A stretch of DNA of 64,000 bases, from the NCBI GenBank assembly GCA_949295935.1, contig CASFMW010000003.1, forward strand, positions 28,109 to 92,108, written 5' to 3'. This document shows positions 16,968-58,748 of the stretch, piece after piece; the first letter of the stretch is position 1, and the number at the start of each line of letters is the position of its first letter. This DNA comes from an uncultured Pseudomonadota bacterium (GTDB lineage Bacteria; Pseudomonadota; Alphaproteobacteria; RF32; CAG-239). Below the pieces are notes generated by a model. The model saw only the letters and a program-made list of their open reading frames with translations, made no database searches and was not told where the DNA came from. Position numbers and translations under genes: made by a program.

Positions 16968-16992
16968 TTTAGACAAAGGTCAACAAAAAAGC
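16968..16992 (-). promoter_or_regulatory. Conserved promoter-like element upstream of thyA (minus-strand reading TTTTTTGTTGACCTTTGTCTAAAA; -35 TTGACC, 16-bp spacer, -10 TATATT)
   Basis: Near-identical motif recurs at 25830, 34065, 40992 and, related, 18699. Confidence 0.5.
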
Positions 16993-18777: not shown

Positions 18778-19257
18778 ATGAGTACGATAGAAATTTTATT
18801 ACTGGGCATCATGGCCGTCATTGCGATTAATTTTTTCTATGTTCTTTTCAAGAAGCCGTTTTGGAATCTTTTCAAACAAGCAGTATGGAACACATGGAAC
18901 GGATTGTGCCTTATTATTTTAGGCATACTGTTTGTAATTTATGCAATCAACACGGAAAGAATAAACGGATTCTTTTTGCTGGCCGTATTTGTCGCAACCT
19001 TCGTGAGCTATATCTCGACCAAAATGATAGAAAGAAAATTCTGCACAGTTATGTATGGAGAAACTCATTTTTTCCGCATTACATCTTTTGTCGGCAAAAA
19101 GATATACGGAGAATTAGCCATCACTGGCTCGGGTGAAACTGTTCCAGCACGATTGGTTTGTCCGCTTCACGCCGATTACAAGTATAATGACATCATACCG
19201 GTTGCGGTTTTGTTATGCAAACAAAATGAAATCATCGTCGAACCGACGGAAAATTAA
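18778..19257 (+). CDS. Hypothetical membrane protein, tandem paralog 1 (159 aa; N-terminal TM helices, C-terminal soluble domain)
   Basis: Shares NFFYVL(F/Y)K.PFWN, HFF(R/K)I...G(K/R)I(Y/F)GEL and C-terminal VEP motifs with the ORF at 19373-19849. Confidence 0.65.
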   Translation: MSTIEILLLGIMAVIAINFFYVLFKKPFWNLFKQAVWNTWNGLCLIILGILFVIYAINTERINGFFLLAVFVATFVSYISTKMIERKFCTVMYGETHFFRITSFVGKKIYGELAITGSGETVPARLVCPLHADYKYNDIIPVAVLLCKQNEIIVEPTEN

Positions 19258-19372: not shown

Positions 19373-19849
19373 ATGGAAACGCTTAAAATTTTTTTATGTA
19401 TTGTCATTTTCATAAACATGACAAATTTTTTTTATGTGTTATATAAAGCTCCTTTCTGGAACTTTGATAAACAATTTTTATGGAAATTATGGGTTTTATT
19501 CTGTTGCTCTGCATTAATTGTATTAGCCTTAATTTGTTATTTTCATAACATTAATAACAAATGGATTATAACAACAATATTGTTAGCTCTCGGAATGGAT
19601 TTAAACTCCATCCCCCTTGTGCTGTCAGATTTTAATAAAGTGATAAAAGAAAGACCTCACTTTTTTAAAATAGAGAGAATAGAAAACGGACGAATTTTCG
19701 GTGAACTTTTTATAGCCGAAAAGGACGACACATTCCCTGCTGAGATGATAAACGTTCCACAAGGAAAATACAAAATCGGAAATAAAATAACAGTAAACGT
19801 CGTTATCTGTACAATTGAAAAAATAAAAGTTGAGCCTCAAACAACTTAA
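19373..19849 (+). CDS. Hypothetical membrane protein, tandem paralog 2 (158 aa)
   Basis: Paralog of 18778-19257 (roughly 30% identity, same architecture). Confidence 0.65.
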   Translation: METLKIFLCIVIFINMTNFFYVLYKAPFWNFDKQFLWKLWVLFCCSALIVLALICYFHNINNKWIITTILLALGMDLNSIPLVLSDFNKVIKERPHFFKIERIENGRIFGELFIAEKDDTFPAEMINVPQGKYKIGNKITVNVVICTIEKIKVEPQTT

Positions 19850-21192: not shown

Positions 21193-21334
21193 CTAATCGA
21201 CCATTATACAAACTTTTCTACAACTTAAAACTGGGGATAATAGTACAGATAGAGGCATTTCTAGCTGCGAGAAAAATTTTAGTGGGTACATGAATTTTCC
21301 GAGACAGCGTAAAATGCCTCTAGATGTGCTGTTA
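21193..21334 (+). repeat. Intergenic repeat copy A (~142 bp) containing 11-bp inverted repeat TAGAGGCATTT...AAATGCCTCTA; candidate small RNA / REP-like element
   Basis: ~97% identical to 34865-34994 apart from an 11-bp indel. Confidence 0.7.
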
Positions 21335-23965: not shown

Positions 23966-24871
23966 TTAAAGATTAAACACACGAACGGGAGCAATTCTGC
24001 GCTCCTCGATTCGCACCACGGCCACCGACTTACCCTCACAAACGGCAACCGCCTCTTGCCCGACAAGGTTTTGAACATCAAAAGCCTTTGGCGAGAGCGC
24101 CTGCCCGAGTTTAAGCTTAGCGGCCTCAACTTCCGAAACAGCAATAACCGTGATGTCGCACAGAAATGTTTCTATCGGAAGCAAAACTCCATTTAGGGCA
24201 TCACCATACACCATATTTTCTAAATTTTCCAGTAAAATTTTATGTCTAAGGTCAAATTGCCCGCATTTTAAACGCCGAAGCTCCTGCAAATAGCCCAAAG
24301 TACCGAGTTTTTGAGCAATATCATGTCCCAAAGTGCGCACATAAGTTCCTTTCGAGCAAACCACGCGGAACTTTGCCCGATTCGCCGGCAGAATTTCTAC
24401 GAGTTCAAGTTCAAAAATTTCAACCTCGCGCGGCGGAATAGAAAATTCAACCCCTTTCCGTGCTAAATCATAAGCTCTCTGCCCATTAATTTTCAGAGCG
24501 GAATAAGCCGGCGGCACTTGCATGATTTTTCCTAAAAAAGCCGGCAAAATATTAAGAATTTCTTCTTGCGTCGGAATTTTATCACAGCGATCAATAATCT
24601 CGCCGTCTGAATCATCAGTATTGGTTGCAGCACCCCACTGCACCACAAATTCGTATTCTTTAACCCCGTCAGTCACAAACGGCAAAAGTTTTGTCGCCTC
24701 ACCGAAAGCAATTGGCAAAACTCCGGTGGCAAAAGGATCGAGTGTTCCGGCATGACCATTTTTCTTAGCATTAAAAATCCGTTTTGTACGGCGCACAACC
24801 TCGGTTGAGCCCATTCCGCGAGGTTTATCTATAATCAACCAACCATTTATGTCTTGCCCTTTATGTTTCAT
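23966..24871 (-). CDS. truB: tRNA pseudouridine(55) synthase
   Basis: …INGWLIIDKP…MGSTEVV…HAGTLDP… catalytic Asp motif; ATG at 24871 (ORF-track extension upstream is non-coding read-through). Confidence 0.93.
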   Translation of the reverse strand: MKHKGQDINGWLIIDKPRGMGSTEVVRRTKRIFNAKKNGHAGTLDPFATGVLPIAFGEATKLLPFVTDGVKEYEFVVQWGAATNTDDSDGEIIDRCDKIPTQEEILNILPAFLGKIMQVPPAYSALKINGQRAYDLARKGVEFSIPPREVEIFELELVEILPANRAKFRVVCSKGTYVRTLGHDIAQKLGTLGYLQELRRLKCGQFDLRHKILLENLENMVYGDALNGVLLPIETFLCDITVIAVSEVEAAKLKLGQALSPKAFDVQNLVGQEAVAVCEGKSVAVVRIEERRIAPVRVFNL

Positions 24872-24981
24872 TCCAAAATTCCGTAACATTAAAACCTTAT
24901 ACCGAAGGTGATAAAGGATAAAGCACCCCCTGTCAACTGATTTAAAACGAAAAAAGCCCTGCATAAGCAGAGCTTTTGTTC

Positions 24982-25785
24982 TTAAAGAGCTGACTTCAAC
25001 TGACACAACCTAGATAGCACATAGGCTGTATCTTTCACAATTTCACCAAAGCTTCGAGGTGCTGTCAAATACAAATAATCAGTATTATCAACCCCATAAG
25101 CCAAAGTCATCGGCTTTTTCAAACTCAGCAATTCTTTACAGCGCTTGAGCAGGCTTGGCAACACAATCGGCTTTTTATAATAGACATCTTTATGACGATT
25201 ACGATCAAGCAACATTCCTTTACCATGTCGCACCACCAAGAGCAAATCAGCAAATGTTCGTTCAAGTATGCCTTGTCGGTTATCATACCAAACATCAAAA
25301 CTCTTAAAATCCATTTCCGCACAAACAATCTGCTTAGGATTATATTCATTACGAAAAACGGAAAAATAAGTTTTTTGCTTAAGACCGATATTTGTATCAA
25401 AAAATGAAAAACAGTTACCATCGACATACAGCGAACCTTTTTCAACCAACGCCCCCAAGCGTTTTATTTGACAATCAGCGCCAATAGCATAATAACAATC
25501 GCCATTATAAGCTTTCATCTGCCTACCATTTTGATATTCACCACTGCATTTTCCTGAAGGATAAAGCAAATATCCGCTTTTTACGCTAATGGAACGCACA
25601 TGAGAAACCAATACCTCCAATGCCGGAAAACTAAGAATCATACTCATCTTTGTTTCTGTGCAGTGAAGCACGGCTAGATTACGAAAAGTCCAAAATTCAC
25701 CTTTTTCAACATGTGTCTCAATACCGCCGATTTCTCTTGAAGTCACTTTCAGAACAGCTGTTCCGTTTTGAATAAATTTTTCCAT
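24982..25785 (-). CDS. Hypothetical protein (267 aa), Cys/Tyr-rich, no recognisable domain; inserted between rbfA and truB
   Basis: ORF preceded by the conserved TTGACTTTTGTCTA promoter motif; shares an F-D/S-x-x-(Y/W)-W motif with the 144/179/180-aa paralogs. Confidence 0.55.
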   Translation of the reverse strand: MEKFIQNGTAVLKVTSREIGGIETHVEKGEFWTFRNLAVLHCTETKMSMILSFPALEVLVSHVRSISVKSGYLLYPSGKCSGEYQNGRQMKAYNGDCYYAIGADCQIKRLGALVEKGSLYVDGNCFSFFDTNIGLKQKTYFSVFRNEYNPKQIVCAEMDFKSFDVWYDNRQGILERTFADLLLVVRHGKGMLLDRNRHKDVYYKKPIVLPSLLKRCKELLSLKKPMTLAYGVDNTDYLYLTAPRSFGEIVKDTAYVLSRLCQLKSAL

Positions 25786-25829: not shown

Positions 25830-25852
25830 CCATTTTAGACAAAAGTCAAGCG
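25830..25852 (-). promoter_or_regulatory. Conserved promoter-like element (minus strand CGCTTGACTTTTGTCTAAAAT) upstream of the 267-aa ORF
   Basis: Motif family; -35 TTGACT, ~16-bp spacer, TATTCT. Confidence 0.5.
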
Positions 25853-25912: not shown

Positions 25913-26827
25913 CTAAAATTCGAGCATTAGAGATTCTGTCTTTTTAAACAATTTATTTCCAATTTTAAGGTGTTTACTAGGAATGCACTCTAAAAAGCCA
26001 CCAGAAGCCAAAACCACCTTTCGGTTCTGATTATCAAACCCCAACAATGTAAATGGCGTTGAAGAATCAGATAAGACAACCGTGTTCATCCATAAAGAAT
26101 AAAAGTCTTTTTCTTTGTTTAACAATAAAAAAGAGGCAGATTTTTCATCCCAACCATACAATCGATTATTAGATTTAAGAAAACAATGTCGGCGTGGTTT
26201 ATAAAGACGACCAACAGGTGTCAATACATCAAACCTGCCATCCAATCGCTCTCCTACAACAAATTTTCCTTGATGTCCCCAAAAATCAATTATTTCATAA
26301 TTCTTCCAAACAGTTTCACGCACCACATTTTTATTAAAATAACGAACAGTCATCGTCCCATCTGAAAAAGGAGTAATAAAAACATTGTTTTCATCTAATT
26401 TCTTTTTTCCTAACAAGACTTCATCTTCGCCACAATACCAAGATTTTTTTCCCTTTCGATATATAAAAATATAAGGAGAAAAACTAAAATCTTTTACACT
26501 GCATGAAAGTTTCACAAAAGAACATCTTTTAGAACAATAACGATAAAGAACATAAAGACCATCGAGTTTACTAAAAACTAATAAATCTCCCTCATGAAAA
26601 GAAAAGCTTCCTTTAAGTCCCTCATTATAACAAACATACTTTCTTTCCTGTTCCGAATACAGATAAGCAGCCTTCAAATCACCAATAAACGTTTGCATTC
26701 CAAATTTTGAACGAACAAAAAACTTCGTCTCGGTTAATACAAAAGATTTCATAATTATAAAGATTAAAATTAAACATAAAAATAAATTAAAGTAACCAAG
26801 AGATAGCACAAGTTTTTCATTTGTCAA
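25913..26827 (-). CDS. Hypothetical membrane-anchored protein (304 aa; single N-terminal TM helix, Tyr/Lys-rich beta-rich ectodomain)
   Basis: ORF; hydrophobic segment LVLSLGYFNLFLCLILIFII; located inside the infB-rbfA-truB-rpsO-pnp gene string. Confidence 0.55.
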   Translation of the reverse strand: MTNEKLVLSLGYFNLFLCLILIFIIMKSFVLTETKFFVRSKFGMQTFIGDLKAAYLYSEQERKYVCYNEGLKGSFSFHEGDLLVFSKLDGLYVLYRYCSKRCSFVKLSCSVKDFSFSPYIFIYRKGKKSWYCGEDEVLLGKKKLDENNVFITPFSDGTMTVRYFNKNVVRETVWKNYEIIDFWGHQGKFVVGERLDGRFDVLTPVGRLYKPRRHCFLKSNNRLYGWDEKSASFLLLNKEKDFYSLWMNTVVLSDSSTPFTLLGFDNQNRKVVLASGGFLECIPSKHLKIGNKLFKKTESLMLEF

Positions 26828-26874: not shown

Positions 26875-27264
26875 TTATTCTTCATCATTTTTAGCCAAAT
26901 CACGCGCCACTTTGGGGTCTCGCAAAAGCTTTTCGATTTTATCAACTTCCTCAAAACTCTTATCAATTCTAAAACTAAGCTCCGGCACATAACGCAACTC
27001 GGTTTTTGCCATAATCACTTTGCGCAAATAGTTTGCCGCAAGTTGCAACCCGCCGATAACCTGCTGTTCTGCTTCTTTTGATGAAGTTATGATATAAACG
27101 GAAGCATATTTCAAATCCGGAGAAACCTTAACTTCCATAACCGTAACAAGGGTGTTAATTCCTTGCAGATTGCGAATTTCATCACGCTCAATTTGCTTGG
27201 CAATAATTTTCTTAATTTCTTGCCCGACACGCAACTGCCGCTGAGAAGGTTCTTTATCAGCCAT
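26875..27264 (-). CDS. rbfA: Ribosome-binding factor A
   Basis: MADKEPSQRQLRVGQEIKKIIA... KH-like RbfA signature; start at internal ATG 27264. Confidence 0.9.
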   Translation of the reverse strand: MADKEPSQRQLRVGQEIKKIIAKQIERDEIRNLQGINTLVTVMEVKVSPDLKYASVYIITSSKEAEQQVIGGLQLAANYLRKVIMAKTELRYVPELSFRIDKSFEEVDKIEKLLRDPKVARDLAKNDEE

Positions 27265-27389
27265 AAAACATCTCCTAAAACAAAATCTAACGCGACTATA
27301 GCACGAAAACGCCGTCAAATCAAGAAAAAACAAACGGCAGGCAAAGAGAAAATCTCCCGCCTACCGCTTTTATTGTTTTTGAAAACAGA

Positions 27390-30230
27390 CTATTTTCTTT
27401 CGGTCTTATCCATCGGCAACGGTTCTTTAGAACCACTGTTGAACAAAATAGCCTCACTGATAGCCGTGTTCTTAACCGGAATATCAGTAATCTGCTTACC
27501 GCAAATCTCAAGTCCGACACTCTTAAGAGCCGTCGCAATCGGCAAGAACAAGTCTGTATTTTCACCGCTGGCACCTGAATGAGCAAATCCAGTGACCGTA
27601 CCGTCCTTATCAATCAAAGCACCGCCCAGCGTAATATTTTGAACATAAGTATCAAGCAAGATTTCTGTACCTCTGCTCTCACTGTAACGATATCCTTTAA
27701 TCTTACCGGAATCTTCCAGATAGCCTTCACCGGTATCAAAGTCAAGAATACCAAGGCTCATATAAGTCTTCTGGTTAATCAGAGGCAAAGACAAATTGAG
27801 CGACAGCGGCGTATACTCAGTCTTTCTGTCAAGATAAAGCAGAGCCGTATTCTTATCAGGATTAATTCTAACCGCATAACCGGTAAATTGACCACCATTA
27901 ATCGTGCGCAGATTATAACTGTTGTTATCTTTGGTAATCAAATCGGCAGAAGTCAAAACAAACTGATCAGAAACAATCAAGCCCGCACCTTCTTTACCAT
28001 TGGCATTAGTAATTGAGATAATTGAAGTACGAACCTTATAAACATCTTCGGCAGAAAGAGGGATGGTATAAGGCGCACGCTCAACAATGCAAAGCATATT
28101 CTGAGCTTCGATAGCATTTTTATCATCAACAGGAACATTAACCCAAGTCTCTTTGCTCAAAGAGCCACTGGCTTTAACACCACCGTCTTCTTCAATGCTA
28201 ACCGGAATCTTGCACATCTTTTCATCTTCATCACAACAGGTATTGAAGATGCTATCGCACTTGTCACAAGGTTCATTAAGCTTGTTGTCTTCACAACCAC
28301 CATAAAACTTATTCGGTTCACAACCGCCGTAAATCTTATTATTGCAGTCACAATCAGGTCCAAACAAAGTCATGTTGTTACACGGCGTTGCCGGAGCGTC
28401 TGAAGTCAAAGCTGCGATTGGAGCAGCCACGGCAGCAACCGGAGCACCAACAACGGCTAATAACGGAGAAATACCCTCACCATCTTTAACTTCTTTTGAA
28501 TAACGCTCATCAGACGGAACCGGACTAATGCTGGGGTCAAGCGGCTCAGGAGCAGCTTCTTTACTCAACAAAATATCTGCAGGCTCAGCAACCGGTTGCT
28601 CTGTAACAACAGTCTCCTCAACCACAGCTTCTTCCAAATCAAGACTATTCAAAACAGTTGGTTGAGCATCTGTTGCAGGCTGTGCCACTGGAGCTGGAAC
28701 AGGCGCCGAAAGCGGAGCCGGCGCAGGTTCAGGAGCAGGTTGCGGCATTGGAACCGATTGTGGAGCAGCCATCGGGGCCGGAGCCGGCAATGGAGCTGGC
28801 TGCGGCGTTGGTGCCGGTTGCGGCGTTGGAAGCGGTGGAACCGGTGGAACCGGTGTAAGCGCAGAACCAACTTCCGACTGCTTATTTTCAACCGGAATCA
28901 ACGGTTGCTCTGCTTTTTGAGGAACAACCGGACTTGGCATAACTGGCTTATCATCAGGAGTATAAACATATTTTGTAACACTGTTTTTACGAGCTTCATG
29001 ATCAGTATATTGACACTTAATCGGATTATGAGCTTTTTCATGTTCAATATATTGAATCCGCTGGCTTTCTTTTTCAGCAGATGTAAAGCGATGAGAAACC
29101 ACCTTCAAAAAAGCCGGATGACTGCGAAGATTGTTAGCGGCATCAGCAAAAGCTTTTTCAACCAACAAAACCTCACCATTAGGCTCACCGCGCATCAAAT
29201 CAGCATAACCATCAGTCTCGCCCGACCAATAAATAACTTCACGGTTAATATCGGTAACCGTCCATTTAACCGTAATCTCAGAAGACCCGATACGACTGTT
29301 TTCCATAATGGCTTCATTCCAATTATACTTATCACAAATATTCATAAAATAATTGGTGATTTCTGCCGTAATCAAATACTCTGGCAAGGGGCTCGGTGTT
29401 TCTTCAATACAAACATCATCAGGAATTTTAACAATATTGAAGCAGTCTTTAAGTTGATTATCAAAAACGGAAATAAGACGCATATTGCTTTCCATCAACC
29501 GCCCTTGGTTCAAAATCGCTTCTTTGGTAAAACGACGGCAACCGAAAATACGGAATCGATAATTTCCGAGCTTTTGCATCAAAGGCCCGTTAATATCTTC
29601 ATCATTGAGCTTAAAATCAACCCATTCTAACTGGATAGGTGCATATTGCCCACATTTTCCATGAATTTTATCATAAACACTGCCGCTTGGACGAACAACA
29701 TAATTCTGCACAAAGTTATAGCGCACAACTTCTTTAACCCTAACTTTAGGAGCTTGCTGCTTTGCCTTGCATTTCTGAGGATTAATCGTGCAAGCTGAGG
29801 GTTGGACAGCAACTTTTTTATCACAAAGAATAGGATCATTTCCGCAACCTTGCCCCGGAAAGATGCTATTATCTTGCCCACTGCTCGCTTCGCAGCAAGT
29901 ACCGCCAAAAATGCTGCCATCACGATAAGTCTTGCCCTTAACCGTTACCACCGGAATATTTGCCGCTCTTCCATCTTGCTGAGGGTTCAATGCTTCTTTG
30001 CGCTGCTGAATACGAGTTGTAATTTCACCGGCATATTTGCTTTTCTGATCAAAAAAGCCCATACTCGAACTTGTATCGGCATATTCGGTCCGAATTTCTA
30101 TTTCCCCGTTGCCATCATAAGCATTATTATCATATTGAGAAGCCCAAGACGCCCTCAACGCAACAGCACTCACGCTCAGCGCCAAAACAGAACAGGCCAA
30201 CGGCTTGAAATAGCTATTTATTTTCATCAA
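27390..30230 (-). CDS. Large secreted multidomain protein (946 aa): signal peptide, Cys-containing N-terminal domain, Pro-rich PxP linker, Cys-rich CxC module, C-terminal trypsin-like (S1C/DegP-like) domain with apparent loss of catalytic His and Ser
   Basis: Signal peptide …AVALRASWA; 28.65-28.9 kb encodes PAPTPQPAPLPAPAP repeats; C-terminus aligns to S1 landmarks: VLTSADL (TAAHC with H->D), NTALLYLD, ITLGGALID (GNSGGPL with S->L). Confidence 0.85.
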   Translation of the reverse strand: MMKINSYFKPLACSVLALSVSAVALRASWASQYDNNAYDGNGEIEIRTEYADTSSSMGFFDQKSKYAGEITTRIQQRKEALNPQQDGRAANIPVVTVKGKTYRDGSIFGGTCCEASSGQDNSIFPGQGCGNDPILCDKKVAVQPSACTINPQKCKAKQQAPKVRVKEVVRYNFVQNYVVRPSGSVYDKIHGKCGQYAPIQLEWVDFKLNDEDINGPLMQKLGNYRFRIFGCRRFTKEAILNQGRLMESNMRLISVFDNQLKDCFNIVKIPDDVCIEETPSPLPEYLITAEITNYFMNICDKYNWNEAIMENSRIGSSEITVKWTVTDINREVIYWSGETDGYADLMRGEPNGEVLLVEKAFADAANNLRSHPAFLKVVSHRFTSAEKESQRIQYIEHEKAHNPIKCQYTDHEARKNSVTKYVYTPDDKPVMPSPVVPQKAEQPLIPVENKQSEVGSALTPVPPVPPLPTPQPAPTPQPAPLPAPAPMAAPQSVPMPQPAPEPAPAPLSAPVPAPVAQPATDAQPTVLNSLDLEEAVVEETVVTEQPVAEPADILLSKEAAPEPLDPSISPVPSDERYSKEVKDGEGISPLLAVVGAPVAAVAAPIAALTSDAPATPCNNMTLFGPDCDCNNKIYGGCEPNKFYGGCEDNKLNEPCDKCDSIFNTCCDEDEKMCKIPVSIEEDGGVKASGSLSKETWVNVPVDDKNAIEAQNMLCIVERAPYTIPLSAEDVYKVRTSIISITNANGKEGAGLIVSDQFVLTSADLITKDNNSYNLRTINGGQFTGYAVRINPDKNTALLYLDRKTEYTPLSLNLSLPLINQKTYMSLGILDFDTGEGYLEDSGKIKGYRYSESRGTEILLDTYVQNITLGGALIDKDGTVTGFAHSGASGENTDLFLPIATALKSVGLEICGKQITDIPVKNTAISEAILFNSGSKEPLPMDKTERK

Positions 30231-30239
30231 AATACTCCA

Positions 30240-31772
30240 TCATTTTTTATAATGCGGCATCATACGGCGGTATGACAAAGCTTCAGCTACGTGCATTTTA
30301 AGCACTTTTTCATTATTTTGCAAGTCTGCAATTGTCCTTGCTAACCGCAAAATGCGATGATAAGCTCTGGCCGAAATTTTATTTTTATCGGCATAATTGA
30401 TAAGAAGCTTCTGAGCCTCATCATCTAATACAACAGCATTATCCAGTGCTTTTCCTTTCAAATCAGCATTTGTATGACAACCCTTAAGGCCCAAAGCTTT
30501 AAAACGATCGCTCTGAATTTTTCTTGCCACCAAAACACGTTCACGAATTTGGGCCGAGGTTTCTCCGGCCTTAACCGAAGAAAGCTCCCACGGAGAAACA
30601 GCATGCATTTCTATTTGAATATCAATACGATCAAGTAAAGGACCTGAAATTTTAGATTGATATTCTGCAGCACAAAGCGGCGCCCTCGGACATTCAAATT
30701 CCGGCGTTCCGAGGTGTCCGCAACGACAAGGATTCATCGCAGCAATAAGCTGCACTTTTGCCGGATAAGTCGTATGAGCATTAACGCGAGATATGGTAAT
30801 TTTACCGTTTTCCAAGGGTTGACGCAACGCTTCCAAAGTTGCGCGATTAAACTCCGGCAACTCATCAAGAAACAAAACACCATTGTGAGCCAAAGAAATT
30901 TCACCCGGTTCGGCACGACGTCCGCCGCCAACCAAAGCTGGCGTCGACGCATTGTGGTGCGGCGCACGAAACGGACGAGAAAAACATAACATACCGCCCT
31001 TAAGCTCACCGGCAATCGAATGAATAATACTGGTTTCAAGAGCCTCTTCTGGTGTTAGCGGCGGCAAAATCCCCGGCAACCTGGCGGCCAACATAGACTT
31101 ACCAGACCCCGGAGGCCCAATCATAAGCATATTATGCCCACCGGCTGCGGCAATCTCAAGAGCACGCTTAGCACTTTCTTGACCTTTAACATCTGCCATA
31201 TCAGGATAAATATTATTTTCAGGCATTTGCTGTTTAATCGGCTGAGGAATCAACTGTGTCCCTTTGAAATGATTGATAAGCTCAAGCAAATTATGAGGCG
31301 CCAAAATCTCTTTAATACCAGACCAAGCAGCTTCTGAACCTTGCTCTGCCGGACAAACCAACCCTTTGTTAAGACGATTAGCATGAATAGCCGCCGGAAG
31401 AATACCGTTTACCGGCAAGATAGAAGCATCAAGCCCAAGCTCACCAAGCACGATATAGTTATCTACTTCCTCCAGAGGAATAATCCCCAGACAAGAGATA
31501 ATACCAAGCGCCACTGGCAAATCATAATGAGAACCTTCTTTGAGCAAATCTGCCGGCGCAAGATTAATTGTCACTCTCTTTGCCGGAAAACTTATTCCTA
31601 TAGAATTAAGCGCTGCTCGCACACGTTCGCGACTTTCGGCCACAGCCTTATCCGGCAACCCGACAATAGAAAAAGCAGGCATTCCCGAAGAAATCTGAAC
31701 CTGCAAATCCACATCTTGAGTATCCAAGCCATTAAAAGCAAGAGTGTTAACGCGGCTAAGCATGCCTACCAC
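30240..31772 (-). CDS. comM: YifB/ComM family Mg-chelatase-like AAA+ ATPase
   Basis: 510 aa; N-terminal Lon-protease-like domain, Walker A GPPGSGKS, ChlI-type AAA+ core, C-terminal domain. Confidence 0.93.
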   Translation of the reverse strand: MVGMLSRVNTLAFNGLDTQDVDLQVQISSGMPAFSIVGLPDKAVAESRERVRAALNSIGISFPAKRVTINLAPADLLKEGSHYDLPVALGIISCLGIIPLEEVDNYIVLGELGLDASILPVNGILPAAIHANRLNKGLVCPAEQGSEAAWSGIKEILAPHNLLELINHFKGTQLIPQPIKQQMPENNIYPDMADVKGQESAKRALEIAAAGGHNMLMIGPPGSGKSMLAARLPGILPPLTPEEALETSIIHSIAGELKGGMLCFSRPFRAPHHNASTPALVGGGRRAEPGEISLAHNGVLFLDELPEFNRATLEALRQPLENGKITISRVNAHTTYPAKVQLIAAMNPCRCGHLGTPEFECPRAPLCAAEYQSKISGPLLDRIDIQIEMHAVSPWELSSVKAGETSAQIRERVLVARKIQSDRFKALGLKGCHTNADLKGKALDNAVVLDDEAQKLLINYADKNKISARAYHRILRLARTIADLQNNEKVLKMHVAEALSYRRMMPHYKK

Positions 31773-32107
31773 CGCGGCGTACGCTCACCGTCACGCCAAC
31801 GGCGAGTAGGATAAGTTCCGCGATGCAAAAAGTCATAGCTTGCGGTTTTATAAGGGATATCCCTATAGCGAACATATCCTTTTCTTTCAAAAATCAAAGC
31901 ACATTCTTCAGAACTGGTTGTCGGCGTTGAATAGCAATGGACAATATATTTGCTCATCGGATTAAGCAGGCTGATTTTGGTCGGCGTATTAACAAAACAA
32001 GGAGGCGCCGCCACATAATTAACCTTTCCTTCCTCGGGAAATTCCCAAAGAGAAGAACATGCGCTCAAAATAAAAAGCAACGGAGCGATAAGAAAAATCC
32101 TGAACAT
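31766..32107 (-). CDS. Small lipoprotein (lipobox LFILSACSS), C-terminus overlapping comM start by 7 bp
   Basis: ORF with lipobox after MFRIFLIAPL; Arg-rich C-terminal tail. Confidence 0.45.
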   Translation of the reverse strand: MFRIFLIAPLLFILSACSSLWEFPEEGKVNYVAAPPCFVNTPTKISLLNPMSKYIVHCYSTPTTSSEECALIFERKGYVRYRDIPYKTASYDFLHRGTYPTRRWRDGERTPRW

Positions 32108-32193
32108 AACACCAATTCCAAAGATAATTTCAAATAATAGCAACCATAGCATTTAATAATTAAAATATCCTAAATCTTTTTGAAAAATTTTTC

Positions 32194-32221
32194 TTGATTT
32201 TCTTCAATTTTCGTGTATATT
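32194..32221 (+). promoter_or_regulatory. Putative sigma70 promoter of rpsF-rpsR-rplI (TTGATT-N16-TATATT)
   Basis: Hexamers at 32194-32199 and 32216-32221, ~110 nt leader to rpsF ATG. Confidence 0.4.
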
Positions 32222-32330
32222 CCGAATGTTCCTTGCTCGAAGAGCTTGCTTTTCGGGCTATACAAATAAGGACTGAGCCGAGTTTTACTTTGGCTTAGAA
32301 TTGTTGAGAATCCATAAGGAGAATAATATA

Positions 32331-32669
32331 ATGAATAATTACGAGAGCGTGCTTATTGCACGTCAGGATCTGGGTGCATCTCAGGTTAACAACATTGTAG
32401 AAGAGCTCTCCAATGTTATCAAGAACGAAGGCGGAAACGTTGTCCGCGTTGACAACTGGGGCTTGAAAAACCTCGCTTATCGTATCAAAAAGAACCGCAA
32501 AGGCCACTATGTTTTGATGAACATCACGGCTCCGGCTTCTGCAATTGCCGAATTTGAAAGAATTATGCGCTTTAACGAAGACATCATTCGTTATATGACC
32601 GTAAGAGTTGAACAATTCAGCGATGCTAATGACGCCAGCAGCGAATCAACCGCCTCGGCAGAAGAATAA
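32331..32669 (+). CDS. rpsF: 30S ribosomal protein S6
   Basis: [14 protein letters not shown]...; AAGGAG SD 9 nt upstream; acidic C-terminal tail. Confidence 0.95.
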
Positions 32670-32681
32670 GGAGAATCGAAA

Positions 32682-32909
32682 ATGGCAAAACAAGTATTCT
32701 TTAGAAGAAAGAAAGCATGTCCGTTTTCAGGCGAAGACGCTTTGAAGATTGACTACAAAGACGTAAAACTTCTCTCCAGATATATTTCTGAAAAAGGGAA
32801 GATTATCCCCAGCCGCATTACCTCCGTTTCTGTTAAGAAGCAGAGAGAATTGGCAAGAGCAATCAAACGTGCACGTTACATCGGCTTATTGCCGTTTGTA
32901 GCCGACTAA
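32682..32909 (+). CDS. rpsR: 30S ribosomal protein S18
   Basis: 75 aa, ...[44 protein letters not shown]. Confidence 0.95.
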
Positions 32910-32927
32910 GCGGAAGGAGAGAAAGAA

Positions 32928-33413
32928 ATGGAAATCATTCTTCTGGAACATGTTGAAAAATTAGGCAAGATGGGCGACAAAGTAAACGTTAAAAACGGTT
33001 ATGCCCGCAACTACCTTTTACCTTCAAAGAAAGCTTTGCGCGCTACTGAAGCAAACATCGCTTTTTATGAAAAGAAAAAAGCAGAGCTTGAAGCTCACAA
33101 CAAAGCTTTGTTTGATGAAGCAAACAAAAAAGCAGAAGCATTAAAAGGCTTCAATGCAGTTTTGATTCGTCAAGCAGCAGAAACAGGCCAATTATATGGT
33201 TCTGTTACAATCCGCGACATTGCAAGTGCAATCAAAGAAGCCGGATTCGATGTTGAACGCCGCTGCGTATTCCTTGAGAAACCGATTAAAGACTTGGGCG
33301 TATATGAAGTAAAACTCAACTTACACCCTGAAGTATCTCAAGTTATTTTGGTAAACGTCGCTCGTACAGAAGACGAAGCCAAGAAGCAGGCAAAAGCTCA
33401 TTCTGCTGAATAA
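32928..33413 (+). CDS. rplI: 50S ribosomal protein L9
   Basis: 161 aa, MEIILLEHVEKLGKMGDKVNVKNGYARNYLLP... Confidence 0.95.
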   Translation: MEIILLEHVEKLGKMGDKVNVKNGYARNYLLPSKKALRATEANIAFYEKKKAELEAHNKALFDEANKKAEALKGFNAVLIRQAAETGQLYGSVTIRDIASAIKEAGFDVERRCVFLEKPIKDLGVYEVKLNLHPEVSQVILVNVARTEDEAKKQAKAHSAE

Positions 33414-33427
33414 AACTTCGGTTTTAA

Positions 33428-33467
33428 CAAAAAAGCTCTGAGTAGTGAAACTCAGAGCTTTTTTTAA
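33428..33467. terminator. Bidirectional terminator between rplI (+) and the 180-aa paralog (-): AGCTCTGAG-tagtgaa-CTCAGAGCT flanked by A/T runs
   Basis: Perfect 9-bp stem. Confidence 0.75.
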
Positions 33468-34006
33468 TCTAAAGAAGCAACCGGACAGGCAAAATAAGTA
33501 TTGAGTTTTCCACCAGCAATAAGACTATCAGGACTATCCAAAAAATAAACAATTCCAGCAGCCCCTCCATTTCCATACTCACTATCTGTCCACAAAATAT
33601 CATGAGGACAAATCGGCTCAAAGCCCATTCTTATTCGCTGAATATTAATCTGCGTTAAACGAGGACAAACTTCTACCAGCCAAAAATGCCTATCCCCGCG
33701 AGAACATTTATTGCCAAGAATAGTTTGTTTTTCACAATACTTTCCTGCTTCAAACCAATCTAAATGATTAGTTGAATGCTCAATAAATACAGCTTTTCCA
33801 GCAATAATTATTGCTTTAGGATGTACCCCTTTCAAAGGAAACCAAGAACGTTTATCATTTTCATAAACAACTTCAAAAGAAAAGCGTTCTTTAGGACCTC
33901 CTTTCTGAACAAAATACCCTCCAAAATAACGAGCAATTTCTGCCGGAAGAATTTTATTCTCTTTCATAAGAGTTACCACTTGTTCTATAACTTCTTTTTT
34001 TTCCAT
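33464..34006 (-). CDS. Paralog-family protein 1 (180 aa) of a three-member small-protein family; possible SUKH/Smi1-Knr4-like fold (speculative)
   Basis: Shares with 34123-34662 and 40491-40925 the core ...(V/L)(V/L)Y(K/E)N..(K)RS..PL.GV.P.AI..GK... and YC(E/Q)KQ...G...FW and F(D/S)xx(Y/W)W blocks. Confidence 0.7.
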   Translation of the reverse strand: MEKKEVIEQVVTLMKENKILPAEIARYFGGYFVQKGGPKERFSFEVVYENDKRSWFPLKGVHPKAIIIAGKAVFIEHSTNHLDWFEAGKYCEKQTILGNKCSRGDRHFWLVEVCPRLTQINIQRIRMGFEPICPHDILWTDSEYGNGGAAGIVYFLDSPDSLIAGGKLNTYFACPVASLD

Positions 34007-34064
34007 ATAATATAATTATTAAATTGACATCATAATAAAAAAACAAAATAAGGCTACATTAAGT

Positions 34065-34088
34065 ATAGACAAAAGTCAACAAAAAAAG
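34065..34088 (-). promoter_or_regulatory. Conserved promoter-like element (minus strand TTTTTTTGTTGACTTTTGTCTATA) upstream of the 180-aa paralog, abutting the upstream gene's terminator
   Basis: Motif family. Confidence 0.5.
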
Positions 34089-34118
34089 GTTTTATCCTTT
34101 AAGATAAAACCTTTTTTG
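34081..34118 (-). terminator. Rho-independent terminator of the 179-aa paralog gene (AGGTTTTATCCTT / AAGATAAAACCT + T-run)
   Basis: Inverted repeat with flanking A/T runs. Confidence 0.7.
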
Positions 34119-34122
34119 AAAA

Positions 34123-34662
34123 TCACGGCATCAATAACATCGGTCGAACACTAAAATTTTGAGATTTAGAAGCAATTTTCTCCACTCCTTTCTTAAAACA
34201 AGAACAGGAACATCCATACCTAGAAGAATAAATCCAATAAGCAGAAGAAAAATCAATTTTTTGCCCACCAAGAATTTCTATCTCCTGATTAATGTTATCA
34301 GCATTCTTAAACAAGAAATCCCAAATCTTACGAGTACCCATATTGGCCGAATAACCATAAAATTTAATTTGAGCAGCTCCATCTAAAGCTTCTGCAAAAG
34401 AAAGCCTTTGTGGCAAATCCCAAAGCGAAACAAAACAACGTTCCACAAAAATAGCAATTGGAATCTCGCCCAAAACTTTACAATCATAAACGTGCCCTGA
34501 CTTATACAAAACCTTAAAAGGCAAAGGCTCAGAAACAACACTCACTTCTGTATCAGCAACAAATTTCCCGCCCCATCGTTTGCATAAATCATCAATTGAA
34601 ATACCTTTTCTCAACATCTCACTAAAAAGGTAATCTACCGCTTCACTTTTACTTAGTTCCAT
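34123..34662 (-). CDS. Paralog-family protein 2 (179 aa)
   Basis: Homologous to 33464-34006 (N-terminal ...RWGGKFV... vs ...RYFGGYFV...; core PLPFKVLYKSG...GEIPIAIFVER) and to 40491-40925. Confidence 0.7.
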   Translation of the reverse strand: MELSKSEAVDYLFSEMLRKGISIDDLCKRWGGKFVADTEVSVVSEPLPFKVLYKSGHVYDCKVLGEIPIAIFVERCFVSLWDLPQRLSFAEALDGAAQIKFYGYSANMGTRKIWDFLFKNADNINQEIEILGGQKIDFSSAYWIYSSRYGCSCSCFKKGVEKIASKSQNFSVRPMLLMP

Positions 34663-34864
34663 AATAAAAATATTAATAATACAAATAAAAATTCAAAATC
34701 AAATTATCTTTAAATGAAAAAACAATTTTTGTCAATGTCTGGATTAGTTGCCCGTTGCTATATAAAAAGCTCGGAGAACGAGGCAAATAATAAGATTTTA
34801 GGGCGACGACACCGCAGCGTACAAACTAGTACGTGAGAATGTCGGAGACCCGCAGACAACACCC

Positions 34865-34994
34865 TAATCGACCATTATACAAACTTAAAACTGGGGATAA
34901 TAGTACAGATAGAGGCATTTCTAGCTGCGAGAAAAATTTTAGTGAGTACATGAATTTTTCGAGACAGCGTAAAATGCCTCTAGATGTGCTGTTA
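34865..34994 (+). repeat. Intergenic repeat copy B (~130 bp), near-identical to 21193-21334, embedded in a 450-bp intergenic region with additional mosaic sub-repeats
   Basis: Direct sequence comparison; flanking sub-repeat GAGtCGAATAATAAGAaTTTAGGG...AGCGTACA.A..AGTACGTGA occurs at 34775 and 35011, with a related copy at 21055. Confidence 0.7.
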
Positions 34995-35114
34995 AAAGTT
35001 TAATATGTGAGTCGAATAATAAGAATTTAGGAATTTTGCGAGGAGCGTACACAGAAGTACGTGACCGAGCAAAATATCCGACAATTCTGTATTAGTCGAC
35101 CACAGAGTAAACTT

Positions 35115-37622
35115 TTAAAGGGTTGGAGCTATCTCCTCCACCTCATAACACTCAATAAAATCGCCAACTTGAATGTCGTTGTAGTTTTCAAAACTCATAC
35201 CACATTCATAACCGGATTTTACTTCACGAACATCTTCTTTGAAGCGTTTGAGTTGAGCAAGAGCACCATCGTGAATAACAACGTTATCACGCAACAGACG
35301 AACCTTTGCCCCACGCTTAACAAAGCCCTCGGTAACCATACAACCGCCAACTTTACCAACGCCGGTAATATTGAAGACATTGCGAATTTCAGCATATCCG
35401 ATAATCTTTTCTTTAAGCTCAGGCGTTAACATTCCCTCCAGCGCTTTCTTAATATCGTCAACCACATCATAGATGATAGAATAATAACGAATATCAACAC
35501 CGTCTTGACGGGCAAGATCACGCGCATGAGGAATGGCTCGAACGTTAAATCCGATAATAAAGGCATTTGAAGCCTTCGCCAAAGTAACGTCTGAATCCGA
35601 AATAGGACCAACCGCCGAATGCAAAATCTGAACACTGACTTCGTCATTAGAGAGCTTTTTAATTGTTCCCTCAATAGCTTCGATAGAACCTTGAACGTCG
35701 GCCTTGATAATAACCGGAAGATGTTTAACTTCACCGGATTTAATTTTATCAAGCATTTGCTCCATTGCCGATTTCGCACTCTTAACAAGCTTAGCGTCAC
35801 GCTCTTTACGAATACGATAATTGGTAACTTCTTTAGCCTGAGCCTCGTCTTTAACGATAACAAAATCATCACCTGCGGCCGGTGTACCTTGCAAACCAAG
35901 GATTTCAACCGGAGTGGCCGGACCGGCCTCAGTCATTTTCTTACCATGTTCATTAAACATCGCACGAATATGACCCCATTCTTTTCCGGCAATACAAATA
36001 TCGCCGACATGAAGTGTTCCGTTCTGAACCAAAACAGTTGCAACCGAACCACGGCCTTTTTCCATTTTAGCTTCAACCACAGCACCTTGAGCCAAACGGT
36101 TTGGATTTGCTTTCAAATCAAGAATTTCTGCTTGCAACAAAATAGCTTCGACCAACTTATCAATATTGATTCTCTTCTTAGCAGAAACCTCGGCGCACAA
36201 ACTATCACCGCCCATCTCTTCAACCGCAATCCCATGTTGCAGCAAAGCTGTCTTAACTTTCATCGGATCAGCACCCGGCAAATCGATTTTATTAATAGCA
36301 ACCACAATTGGCACTTCAGCGGCTTGAGCATGACGAATAGCTTCAACTGTCTGCGGCATAATACCATCATTAGCAGCTACAACCAAAACCACAATATCCG
36401 TAACTTTTGCACCACGAGCACGCATTTCAGAGAAAGCCTCGTGTCCCGGAGTATCAATAAAGGTAATTTTTTTACCACCGGCAACTTCAATCTGATAAGC
36501 ACCGATATGCTGTGTAATACCACCAGCTTCACGAGCAGCCACATTGGTCTCACGCAAAGCATCAAGCAATGATGTTTTACCATGGTCAACGTGTCCCATA
36601 ACCGTAACAACCGGCGCTCTTGGCAACAAATCATCAGCCGTATCTTGCGGACCGGTCAAACCTTGTTCCACATCACTATCGGCCACACGTTTAACCTTAT
36701 GACCAAATTCTTCAACCACGATCTGAGCCGTATCAGCATCAATTGGTTGGTTAATAGTAGCCATAACACCGAGAGCCATCAACTTTTTAATAACCTCAGC
36801 ACTTTTTTCTGCCATACGGTTAGCCAATTCCTGAACAGTAATAATCTCAGGAACAACAACCTCTTTAATAATTTTTTCAGCAGGTTGTTGCGGAGCTTGC
36901 TGAGGTTTCGGCTGTTTTTTCTTAAAGCGACGACGCGGAGCTCCATAACCATAATCATCGTCATCATCATCCATTGAGCCCATAACATTATGAAGATTAA
37001 CTTTCCCTCCACGACGTTGTGGTTCAAAGCTACGCTTCATAATTTTTTTGCGCTCTTGTTCAAAAACTTCTTCTTTGCTTAAAGACTTTCCGCCTTTCTG
37101 AGAACGATAAGAACTATCATCATTATCTTCATCATCATCAAAATCACGAGGTCTCTTATCCTTAGCCTTTGAAGCTGCACGTTCTTCTGCCGCTGCTGAT
37201 TTTTCAGGATTAACGGCAGAATCAGCCTTAGCCTCAACTTTTTGCGGCTGCTTAACTTCTTGCTTTTGCTGACTTTGAGTCTTTTCTTTTTCTTGTTCTT
37301 CAGCCTGTTTTTGCGCCTTAAGAGCCTCTTCTTGCTCACGACGCAACTGACGTTGACGCTCTTTTTCTTCCTCTTCAAGACGACGCTTTGCCTCATGCTC
37401 CTTTGCCTCGGCAATCAACTTAAGCTTAGCAGCCGTAGCATCATCAATCTGCACTTTAGGCTCTTCTTTTTTAGCTGCAGAAATAATTCTTTTTTTGCGC
37501 ACCTCAACCTGAACGACCTTTTTGCCGTCATTATGGCTTTTAGCGGCATCCCCCACATTTTTAAGGGTAAGGGTAGATTTCCCTGATAATGTCAACCTGC
37601 TTTTTGCACTATCTTCTGTCAT
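35115..37622 (-). CDS. infB: Translation initiation factor IF-2
   Basis: 835 aa; Lys/Glu/Ala-rich N-terminal region, GTPase domain ([16 protein letters not shown]), C-terminal IF2 domains. Confidence 0.97.
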
Positions 37623-40457: not shown

Positions 40458-40486
40458 ATAAAAAAAGCCCTGCAAAAGCAGAGCCT
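40458..40486 (-). terminator. Rho-independent terminator of the 144-aa paralog gene (minus strand GGCTCTGC-tttt-GCAGGGC + T7)
   Basis: Stem-loop plus T-run directly after stop codon. Confidence 0.7.
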
Positions 40487-40490
40487 AAAA

Positions 40491-40925
40491 TCATGGTAAA
40501 TATATAACCGGTCGCACTTTAAATAATGGATTATCATCCAGAGCACAGCTCCGTACCTGCCATTTCCCACTGATACCAAAACCATAAAGCTTATCTTTTT
40601 GCTCATACCAATAAGGAGCATCAAAAACAATAGGCTTAAAACCAGCCAGCTCAGCCGTTTTATTAAAATCATTAAACTGATCTGAAAAACAAATCAACGA
40701 CTTCCAAAAATCCTTTTTTCCAAGAGAAATCCGATAAGTTTTAAATTTTTGTTTTTGACAATAGTTCTGTGCCGACGATAAAAGCATTTTTTTAGGCGCT
40801 TCATCTAAAATAGCAAACTTTCCAAAAACAATAGCCAAAGGTTCAACACCTTCTAACGGAACAAGCGAACGTTTTCCATTTTTATAAAGAACCGGCAACG
40901 GAAATTGAATATTGTTATTATCCAT
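40491..40925 (-). CDS. Paralog-family protein 3 (144 aa), lacks the N-terminal segment of the other two
   Basis: PLPVLYKNGKRSLVPLEGVEPLAIVFGKF..., YCQKQKFKTYRISLGKKDFW, FDAPYWYEQ blocks shared with 180/179-aa proteins. Confidence 0.7.
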   Translation of the reverse strand: MDNNNIQFPLPVLYKNGKRSLVPLEGVEPLAIVFGKFAILDEAPKKMLLSSAQNYCQKQKFKTYRISLGKKDFWKSLICFSDQFNDFNKTAELAGFKPIVFDAPYWYEQKDKLYGFGISGKWQVRSCALDDNPLFKVRPVIYLP

Positions 40926-40991: not shown

Positions 40992-41014
40992 TAGACAAAA
41001 GTCAACAAAAAAAA
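40992..41014 (-). promoter_or_regulatory. Conserved promoter-like element (minus strand TTTTTTTTGTTGACTTTTGTCTAA) upstream of the 144-aa paralog; T-run abuts lptF/G stop codon
   Basis: Motif family; -35 TTGACT, 17-bp spacer, TATATC. Confidence 0.5.
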
Positions 41015-58338: not shown

Positions 58339-58686
58339 TTAAACATCAAGCACAGCAACACATTCAAAAATCCCTTCTTTAAAATAGAAAAGCTTGAAAT
58401 AAATTCCATGCATTGAACGAACCATTATTGCCTTACCAGAAAAACTCAAATTTCCGATTTTTTCTTCATCTTCATAAATCGGAGAAACAAAAGTCATACC
58501 ATAAGCTAAAAACTTACTCATATCATCATAGGTAAAATGAGCATAGCGTTCTACTTCTAAAGCAATTAACATACCATAAAAACAAGCGCCGACCGACAAA
58601 GAAATTTTTCCAACAGAATAATCTCCATTCAACGTCCGTAAGACATCTTCTTTAGTTGGTTTTCTGAATTCATCATTTTTTTTCAT
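58339..58686 (-). CDS. Hypothetical small protein (~115 aa), stand-alone unit with own TTGACA promoter and terminator
   Basis: ORF; ATG at 58686 (ORF-track TTG start at 58707); no recognisable domain. Confidence 0.5.
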   Translation of the reverse strand: MKKNDEFRKPTKEDVLRTLNGDYSVGKISLSVGACFYGMLIALEVERYAHFTYDDMSKFLAYGMTFVSPIYEDEEKIGNLSFSGKAIMVRSMHGIYFKLFYFKEGIFECVAVLDV

Positions 58687-58748
58687 AACCCAATAATTTA
58701 ATAACAATAAAACAATTGCTTTTGCATATCATGCTAAGCAAAGTCTTG

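Follow-up and report, generated by a model that had tools for sequence, protein, structure and literature searches.

What are the three small genes that lie wedged between housekeeping operons in the window (the whole 64 kb stretch of DNA analysed here), and what might their products do? An initial annotation described them as paralogs and proposed that they are orphan immunity proteins, with a weak N-terminal motif of the SUKH/Smi1-Knr4 kind. The open reading frames proved to lie exactly where it had placed them, all on the minus strand:

33464..34006, minus strand: p1, a long-form family member of 180 aa
34123..34662, minus strand: p2, a long-form member of 179 aa that lacks the conserved 'YC'
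40491..40925, minus strand: p3, a short-form member of 144 aa that consists of the lectin-like domain alone and belongs to allele class A

The tandem of p1 and p2 is flanked by infB and the convergent rpsF-rpsR-rplI, and p3 occupies the slot between lptF/G and rimP, which confirms the positions between housekeeping operons. Paralogy is significant through p3, which BLASTP aligns with p1 (E=3e-15, 32% over 112 aa) and with p2 (E=1e-10, 27% over 139 aa). The direct comparison of p1 with p2 gave no significant match, so that these two are linked through p3; each also matches the family HMM (72 members) with E values of about 1e-35 to 1e-40. The motif blocks by which the paralogs had been recognized are present in the translations, the missing 'YC' of p2 being the exception. 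No fourth copy was found in the 64 kb by tblastn or by an HMM search of the six-frame translation. Relatives were searched in metagenome contigs with a p3-type alignment, and positional orthologs of the window genes are present in many such contigs. Between the window and L007, p3 has a dN/dS of 0.064 with synonymous divergence at background level; together with the positional orthologs, this indicates that the family genes are real and under selection.

Each gene had been described as a self-contained unit with its own promoter and rho-independent terminator. The features of the window that bear on this description are the following:

33429..33464, minus strand: p1 terminator, a hairpin with T-run (-21.5 kcal/mol, z -6.9)
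34082..34117, minus strand: p2 terminator, a 16-bp hairpin with T-run (-16.4 kcal/mol, z -4.5)
40465..40486, minus strand: p3 terminator, a hairpin with T-run (-13.8 kcal/mol, z -3.9)
34066..34079, minus strand: p1 promoter box TTGACTTTTGTCTA, whose first base lies 73 nt from the ATG
40992..41005, minus strand: p3 promoter box TTGACTTTTGTCTA, 80 nt to the ATG
34730..34735, minus strand: putative sigma-70-like -35 hexamer of p2, TTGACA, without the family box
16970..16983, minus strand: a single-mismatch version of the box, TTGACCTTTGTCTA, located 71 nt before the probable start of thyA
25836..25849, minus strand: the exact 14-mer box TTGACTTTTGTCTA, 64 nt upstream of ORF267 (24982-25785), an unknown ORF

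All three hairpins are strong and end in T-runs, and 0 of 200 shuffles folded as well in each case, in agreement with a rho-independent terminator for every gene. The p1 terminator carries A/T runs on both sides and could thereby also serve the convergent rplI, and that of p2 abuts the p1 promoter box. At the other end of the units, -10-like hexamers follow 17 nt past TTGACT in both p1 (TAGCCT) and p3 (TATATC), the upstream regions of these two genes have the exact block TTGTTGACTTTTGTCTA in common, and the leader of p3 is AT-rich and devoid of a Shine-Dalgarno sequence. The conserved promoter motif claimed for each gene is therefore shared by p1 and p3, but the p2 site differs, being of the TTGACA type. 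The box of p1 is 100% conserved in L009 and L008, and the promoter and leader of p2 are 93% conserved in L009, where the p2 coding sequence is about 70% identical. No known RNA was detected in the spacers or leaders, the whole window giving no Rfam match, and the window contains no tRNAs. The description as self-contained promoter-gene-terminator units was thus borne out.

Across genomes, the 14-nt box TTGACTTTTGTCTA occurs 22 times, and 16 of these occurrences lie 60-80 nt ahead of the ATG of a family gene. It is preserved without mismatch even in lineages with proteins only ~25% identical to those of the window. Its presence before thyA shows that it does not belong exclusively to the lectin-like family; it is enriched at family genes yet not confined to them. 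Other small accessory genes have promoters and leaders of a related style. Because the box precedes thyA and an unrelated ORF, and because a similar style is used by other accessory genes, it may be no more than a strong promoter variant in general use in the clade, rather than the mark of a dedicated regulon. The stricter view that it is merely a generic promoter, taken from thyA and ORF267, was revised in the light of the count given above.

The AF2 models (pLDDT 83 and 90) show a C-type-lectin-like fold close to that of the C-terminal domain of Legionella pneumophila Lcl (Lcl-CTD; PF07603, PDB 8q4e), preceded in p1 by a two-helix module (residues 3-27) and a linker. This fold rules out a SUKH / Smi1-Knr4 identity, and it is a binding fold, not that of a housekeeping enzyme. 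Homology between Lcl-CTD and the family is apparent at profile level (hhalign 96.8%), and the two share the core motifs W..A..YC, ..YW.S and VR.V. The conserved structural core of the family comprises the W/YC helix, the LGG..L..YW block and the VRPV strand, and the window proteins carry 'C.AG...FW' in place of the classical DUF1566 segment 'DWRLPT..EL'. None of p1, p2 and p3 matches Pfam PF07603 (cut-off 34.9 bits), even at E<=1; among the 72 relatives, 11 do so at E<0.1 and one, P0029, passes the cut-off with 40.8 bits. When the family alignment was compared by hhalign with the three DUF1566 repeats of P0083, a classical DUF1566 protein (225 bits to Lcl_C), a probability of 96.8% was obtained (E 2.3e-10), and the family HMM recovers P0083 at E 5.6e-4. 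Searches of p1-p3 against Pfam, NCBIfam, PHROGs and PADLOC returned noise alone (SGT1 E 0.26; phrog_24986 E 0.048).

The family does not consist of canonical C-type lectins (PF00059). The Ca2+/sugar motifs EPN, QPD and WND are absent from the translations of p1, p2 and p3, the Lectin_C HMM is matched by a single member out of 72 (E 0.09), and, in place of two conserved disulfides, only one Cys column is conserved (85%), with a second at 43%. The family profile finds snaclec C-type lectins in the PDB weakly (E 0.008). Lcl-CTD likewise lacks Ca2+ or carbohydrate motifs and conserved disulfides (PMC11162425). We therefore place the family as a divergent branch of the Lcl_C/DUF1566 superfamily, made up of stand-alone C-type-lectin-like proteins without signal peptides, and the annotation changes from 'novel/SUKH-like immunity' to 'divergent Lcl_C/DUF1566 lectin-like'.

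The family is small and lineage-restricted. It occurs in a clade of uncultured Alphaproteobacteria, with several dispersed copies per genome; in other lineages, 2-4 copies per 15-20 kb were found, after rplI, pnp, rph, leuA, prfC, tig and recF. Neighbours were annotated with Pfam in eight contexts (the window, L001 with the syntenic L002-L006, L010, L011/L012, L013, L019, L020/L021 and L022/L023), L007-L009 serving for synteny and family copies only, and in the scanned contexts they are housekeeping genes or small unknown ORFs. L010, which carries an intermediate form, has only housekeeping neighbours plus a degenerate second copy. The addB-rph slot, occupied by the family in L011, holds an unrelated 122-aa cassette ORF in the window and no remnant of a family gene.

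Phage morons are autonomous promoter-gene-terminator insertions, and by analogy the family also forms self-contained transcription units wedged between two conserved genes. However, the units described here lie in the core chromosome between housekeeping operons, with no prophage genes nearby, and no close viral relatives were found: a search of viral contigs with the p3-type alignment returned nothing, and the best match of a BFVD fold search had an E value of 0.011 (DUF1566 phage proteins, about 0.9). On these two results, a phage origin was rejected.

Strains were compared through metagenome-assembled contigs. The genes flanking the family loci are 98-100% identical at the protein level between the window and L009 (dS 0.02-0.19), whereas p3 is 56% identical with a saturated dS of 1.3 and p2 only 56% (dS 0.62, dN/dS 0.50). 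DNA identity drops from about 95% to 55-60%, and this drop is confined to the coding sequence; the promoter DNA of p3 is about 92-97% identical, and the collapse begins within the coding sequence. At least three discrete allele classes of p3 can be distinguished, with 90-99% identity within and 56-71% between them. Selection within a class is purifying, and L007, a more distant genome, carries the class of the window. Variable positions account for 77% of alpha1, 87% of alpha2 and 72% of the long loop, as against 19% of the core block, so that allele differences fall in the region that is the usual binding face of lectins. The dN/dS values between classes (0.28-0.50) stay below 1 and so give no proof of positive selection. 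The same alleles recur in independent samples, which counts against chimeric metagenome assembly without fully excluding it. The allele classes diverged long ago, and they differ in the coding sequence alone, the promoter on one side and the terminator on the other being conserved. Such discrete ancient classes, with synonymous divergence far above the genome background, fit the role in conflict or interaction that the initial annotation had in mind. We consider it very probable that the fold, the family, the cassette architecture and the allele replacement are as described here.

Our preferred reading, to which we give a probability of about 0.6, is that p1, p2 and p3 are polymorphic ligand-recognition proteins involved in interaction between organisms; it is drawn solely from the fold and the population genetics. 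Each gene forms an autonomous cassette at a junction between core operons: the terminator T-run of the upstream gene is followed by a sigma-70-like promoter, an AT-rich leader without Shine-Dalgarno sequence, the ORF and a terminator. Most of these promoters carry the invariant box TTGACTTTTGTCTA, through which most family copies may be co-regulated. Homologous recombination by way of the conserved flanks would exchange the allele classes among strains; alternatively, the same data can be read as ancient polymorphism that was retained. Balancing or frequency-dependent selection would maintain the specificity classes of the recognition proteins, the partner being a phage, a competitor or a host. 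Lectin-like proteins inside the cell might then bind, and thereby neutralize or sense, variable foreign proteins that enter it, with the helix hairpin at the N-terminus of the long form as a putative self-association module.

The C-type-lectin/DUF1566 scaffold is a classic variable binding head of bacteria and phages, known only from secreted adhesins, fibres and targets of diversity-generating retroelements (DGRs). Here it makes up a signal-less stand-alone family that is diversified along another route, by discrete ancient alleles at fixed slots of the core genome. In its boldest form, which we regard as speculative and rather improbable, the recognition reading would have the clade maintain a germline repertoire of intracellular lectin-fold binders, perhaps dozens of them and co-regulated, that recognize or neutralize phage or toxin proteins; balancing selection would keep their specificity classes, and recombination at fixed chromosomal slots would shuffle these between strains, without any DGR. 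If true, such a repertoire would amount to a bacterial equivalent of polymorphic innate receptors, and it would be the first case in which the DUF1566/C-type-lectin scaffold is used in the cytoplasm, by way of allele classes, without a DGR and with a conserved promoter box of its own.

An intracellular site of action seems the most likely one, given that an export signal is missing from all members and that no disulfide pair is conserved, but we hold this part of the reading only tentatively. By a hydropathy heuristic, none of the 72 family representatives has a transmembrane segment or a signal peptide, the latter in line with what had been claimed for the three window proteins: the maximum 12-residue Kyte-Doolittle value in the first 40 residues is <=2.4, compared with 2.83 in the secreted P0083. 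Judged in the same heuristic way, extracytoplasmic presentation as in all characterized members of the superfamily, by a signal peptide, a lipobox or fusion to a secreted stalk, fibre or adhesin, is not apparent either, and the representatives have no appended domains. On the other hand, all experimentally characterized DUF1566/Lcl_C or bacterial lectin-like heads are extracytoplasmic (PMC11162425, PMC10769870, PMC5758913), which argues against an intracellular role.

These relatives give some weight to an alternative that we find unlikely yet worth keeping in view, namely that the proteins are exported effectors or adhesins. They would leave the cell without a signal, by a T4SS/T6SS-like route, in vesicles or by lysis, and bind the surfaces of hosts, prey or neighbours, and the box would mark an effector-type regulon. 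The absence of a Sec signal, judged by hydropathy, is compatible with dedicated secretion systems. The family genes are dispersed, lineage-specific, fast-diverging and co-boxed, which resembles the effector regulons of Legionella and Coxiella. Exposed molecules typically show discrete allele classes, and the Cys content is relatively high (median 5 per protein). However, no secretion-system genes were found in the window or in any context examined, and the proteins have neither a recognizable export signal nor a fibre, anchor or trimerization stalk. The characterized relatives are all extracellular binding heads (PMC11162425, PMC10769870). Lcl is secreted by the T2SS and is found at the surface as a trimer, carried on a collagen-like stalk, which binds glycosaminoglycans of the host, whereas the window proteins stand alone, lack export signal and stalk, and fall below the Pfam threshold. 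The MAT fibre tip Bd2740 of Bdellovibrio bacteriovorus (PDB 8oks), like the family, belongs to a multi-copy repertoire of diversified binding heads (PMC10769870). It is the tip of a surface-displayed trimeric fibre of 627 aa, whereas here the lectin-like domain makes up the whole of p3, and in the long form a hairpin of about 30 aa is all that comes before it.

The role first proposed, that of orphan immunity proteins which neutralize toxins delivered by competitors by binding them in the cytoplasm, has become improbable. The proteins do resemble immunity proteins in being small, signal-less, multi-copy and highly polymorphic between strains, their allele classes greatly exceed the genome background in age, and a lectin-like fold is a binding fold. 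To our knowledge, however, it is not an established immunity fold, and the SUKH resemblance was refuted by it. No toxin, Rhs, CdiA, VgrG, PAAR, T6SS, phage or integrase gene adjoins any copy in the eight Pfam-annotated contexts, the copies are solitary and do not form arrays, and no member matches a Pfam immunity family or PADLOC.

In the long form, the N-terminal module, two helices in the model, has some likeness to the self-association site of H-NS. This raises the further idea of nucleoid-associated or regulatory proteins, the long form plugging into H-NS-like filaments or acting as a small regulator, with the lectin domain sensing a metabolite. Histone_HNS_N (PF22470) is indeed matched weakly by 5 of 10 N-terminal peptides, repeatedly at the same profile positions (about 50-77), and many family members are basic (median pI 8.45). 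Yet every match lies below the curated cut-off (24.5 bits; the best relative reaches 23.0 bits, E 7.4e-5), p1 and p2 give none, the module is missing altogether from the short form p3, and extreme allele polymorphism would be unexpected in a housekeeping regulator. We consider this idea highly improbable.

There is hardly any chance that the strain differences arose by mutagenic retrohoming in DGR targets: the fold does match the DGR proteins TvpA and Mtd, the DUF1566-type lectin fold being the classic scaffold of DGR variable proteins, but there is no template repeat for p1, p2 or p3 in the 64 kb, all four bases are affected (fractions of p3 positions changed: A 0.45, C 0.32, G 0.35, T 0.28) without an adenine-specific pattern, substitutions spread over the whole coding sequence without a C-terminal variable region, and no reverse-transcriptase domain occurs among the Pfam-annotated neighbours. 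The likeness is one of scaffold, with a binding face that in Mtd, TvpA, LdtA and the 'category d' targets tolerates massive variation; category d corresponds to DUF1566, and half of it, like our family, consists of short DUF1566-only proteins (PMC5758913). The DGR targets vary by ongoing C-terminal hypermutation, whereas the family varies by discrete ancient whole-gene classes.

If the ligand of the proposed recognition proteins is a phage, a toxin or a host molecule, the loci would be determinants of strain specificity in this clade, and the invariant 14-nt box offers a concrete starting point from which to trace the regulator and the remaining regulon members. With conserved flanks and dimorphic alleles, the loci also make easy strain markers. 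The sample names suggest that the clade comes from the gut.

The three small paralogous genes of the initial annotation are present as described, all on the minus strand:

33464-34006, minus strand, p1, open reading frame of 180 aa
34123-34662, minus strand, p2, open reading frame of 179 aa
40491-40925, minus strand, p3, open reading frame of 144 aa

The motif blocks quoted for their translations are real, and the neighbouring genes are those named earlier: infB, p2 and p1 run convergent to rplI-rpsR-rpsF, and p3 is flanked by lptF/G and rimP-nusA-ylxR-infB. In pairwise BLASTP the paralogy runs through p3 (p1-p3, E=3e-15; p2-p3, E=1e-10), direct similarity between p1 and p2 being below significance. 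All three match the family HMM (E about 1e-35 to 1e-42), and neither tblastn nor the HMM run on the six-frame translation found a fourth copy in the 64 kb. A strong hairpin with a T-run closes each gene (-21.5, -16.4 and -13.8 kcal/mol; z -6.9 to -3.9). An identical upstream block, TTGTTGACTTTTGTCTA, is common to p1 and p3; the p2 site differs and is of the TTGACA type. The usual nusA-infB-rbfA-truB-rpsO-pnp linkage is broken in window 26875-37622, where p2, p1 and the convergent rpsF operon come after infB, and about 8-14 kb separates them from rbfA, truB and pnp; family genes occupy the breakpoint. On another metagenome contig, L013, a family member stands between rplI and rbfA.

Direct scans of p1-p3 against Pfam, NCBIfam, PHROGs and PADLOC gave no usable match, and a word-indexed search retrieved only five relatives of p3 among 5.8 billion clusters. 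Exhaustive profile search of 1.84 billion representatives gave 81 relatives at E<1e-3, most of them 140-200 aa long and a few being tandem doubles. Pfam Lcl_C (PF07603, DUF1566) is matched by 11 of 72 relatives, one of which passes the curated cut-off. Aligned with the family profile, classical DUF1566 repeats reach a probability of 96.8%; snake-venom C-type lectins in the PDB match it weakly. This sequence evidence agrees with a lectin-like fold, and the family is therefore a divergent branch of Lcl_C/DUF1566, not a new fold. The member on contig L010 retains the classical 'W.IPT..QL..L' motif and thus links the family to canonical DUF1566. The fold and profile evidence refutes the SUKH resemblance suggested previously, and that identity was dropped. 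Like the window family, the Legionella pneumophila domain Lcl-CTD and the Bdellovibrio bacteriovorus fibre tip Bd2740 are without Ca2+/sugar motifs and conserved disulfides (PMC11162425, PMC10769870). The long forms, p1 and p2, carry about 30 extra N-terminal residues with two predicted helices. Peptides of this module from family members repeatedly match a single stretch of the H-NS N-terminal oligomerisation domain at sub-threshold level (best E 7e-5); the module is possibly a self-association hairpin. Four nt upstream of the L010 member, a 196-aa ORF (9398-9988, plus strand) resembles a degenerate second family copy whose N-terminus is extended by about 35 aa, strongly rich in Arg and Lys.

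Our analysis demonstrates that this lectin-like binding fold is encoded in autonomous cassettes, most of them with a conserved promoter-like box. Several lineages of uncultured Alphaproteobacteria/Pseudomonadota MAGs carry the family in multiple, scattered copies, at a density of two to four per 15-20 kb. Each copy forms its own unit, occasionally with two adjacent, and follows a gene such as rplI, pnp, rph, leuA, prfC, tig or recF. The 14-mer box, TTGACTTTTGTCTA, lies 60-80 nt upstream of ATG in 16 of 22 occurrences, from ten sources, and is exact even where a lineage's proteins are only about 25% identical to those of the window. A -10-like TAnnnT comes 16-17 nt after the box, and then an AT-rich leader without a Shine-Dalgarno sequence. 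The box is not exclusive to the family, being also found at thyA and ORF267 in the window, and other small accessory cassettes have a similar promoter and leader style. The thyA box (16970-16983, minus strand) has one mismatch and lies 71 nt from the likely start codon, the same spacing as at family genes; thyA may share its regulation with the family; alternatively, the box may represent a strong promoter variant of a generic kind. ORF267 (24982-25785, minus strand, 267 aa), preceded by the exact 14-mer, and a 304-aa ORF (25913-26827, minus strand), both of low GC and without Pfam match, sit between rbfA (26875-27333) and truB (23966-25006); L013 likewise has two uncharacterised ORFs there. 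The addB-rph/rdgB slot holds an unrelated 122-aa ORF in the window (58339-58707, minus strand), with its own TTGACA promoter, AT-rich leader and strong terminator, and a lectin-family member instead in contig L011. Small accessory cassettes in general seem to land at core-operon junctions. In a low-GC stretch (GC 0.32), two paralogous ORFs in tandem, each about 158 aa long (18778-19257 and 19373-19849, plus strand), are a second lineage-specific cassette family, each with about three hydrophobic segments, no Pfam match, and its own family-like promoter and leader (TTGACATTTTTGTCA ... ATTATTATT ... ATG) and terminator.

Comparison with the strains L009 and L001 demonstrates allele-class polymorphism: flanking proteins are 98-100% identical and the family genes strongly divergent.

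Divergence between the window and L009 (protein identity; dS; dN/dS)
Flanking housekeeping genes: 98-100%; 0.02-0.19; 0.00-0.12
p3: 56%; 1.3; 0.28
p2: 56%; 0.62; 0.50
p1: 90%; 0.27; 0.18

DNA identity falls from about 95% to 55-60% strictly within the coding sequence, the drop beginning about 15 codons in and stopping at the terminator. The more distant genome L007 (flanks 85-97% identical) has the window's p3 type (92% identity, dN/dS 0.064). At least three discrete p3 classes exist, with 90-99% identity within and 56-71% between classes. The classes differ chiefly in helices alpha1 and alpha2 and in the long-loop region, variable residues lying on exposed elements; the core block and C-terminal strand are conserved across classes. 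The discrete classes, with demonstrated purifying selection within them, do not look like simple fast drift or pseudogenes. The pattern is that of ancient allele classes which predate their host genomes, either swapped through recombination or kept as old polymorphism.

Hydropathy revealed no signal-peptide-like or transmembrane segment in any of the 72 family representatives, whereas all characterised relatives are extracytoplasmic. Because no member has an export signal, we tentatively favour, at a probability of roughly 0.35, intracellular binders that neutralise or sense foreign proteins. The main rival, in which a dedicated system exports the proteins as effectors or adhesins, is rated somewhat less likely. 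The orphan immunity proteins of polymorphic-toxin systems proposed in the initial annotation keep their population-genetic appeal, but the defining toxin linkage is absent and known immunity families gave no match; eight distinct Pfam-annotated contexts contained no toxin, secretion, phage, integrase or reverse-transcriptase genes. Mutagenesis by a diversity-generating retroelement is an obvious route for varying DUF1566 heads (PMC5758913), but is not supported as the source of family variation: no template repeat was found in the window, substitutions affect all four bases, divergence runs through the entire gene, and the contexts examined contain no neighbouring reverse transcriptase. A phage origin is not supported either.

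The family proteins are probably polymorphic recognition modules that act on phages, competitors or a host, with balancing or frequency-dependent selection maintaining them, and homologous recombination through the conserved flanks may move allele classes between strains. The fold and superfamily were already known; new are the stand-alone, signal-less form of the Lcl_C/DUF1566 domain, the dispersed cassette organization with an invariant promoter box, and diversification via discrete, ancient alleles that occupy fixed slots in the core genome. The evolutionary pattern is a striking one, with hypotheses that can be put to the test; the organism is uncultured.

A dispersed repeat of about 140 nt occurs at 34864-34994, inside the 452-nt infB-p2 spacer (34663-35114), and, 91% identical, at 21193-21334. 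It partly self-matches in inverted orientation, has related copies in L013, L011, L007 and L008 and no match in Rfam, and looks like a small MITE/REP-like element. In L015 (ERZ16268063 scaffold_10911), which comes from a different sample, the gene ahead of an identical p2-p1-rplI block is htpG (HSP90), not infB; the p2-upstream junction, which corresponds to window 34663-35114 and carries the repeat, is therefore a strain rearrangement breakpoint or an assembly chimera. ARAGORN found no tRNA genes in window 1-64000, and no Rfam family reached the gathering threshold across the 64 kb. A 946-aa protein (27390-30230, minus strand) has a hydrophobic, signal-like segment at its N-terminus and a trypsin-like peptidase domain (PF13365, E 1.7e-7) at its C-terminus; a long stretch rich in Pro and Ala makes up the middle, and there are also Cys-rich repeats. 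The protein is probably a protease, either secreted or on the surface.
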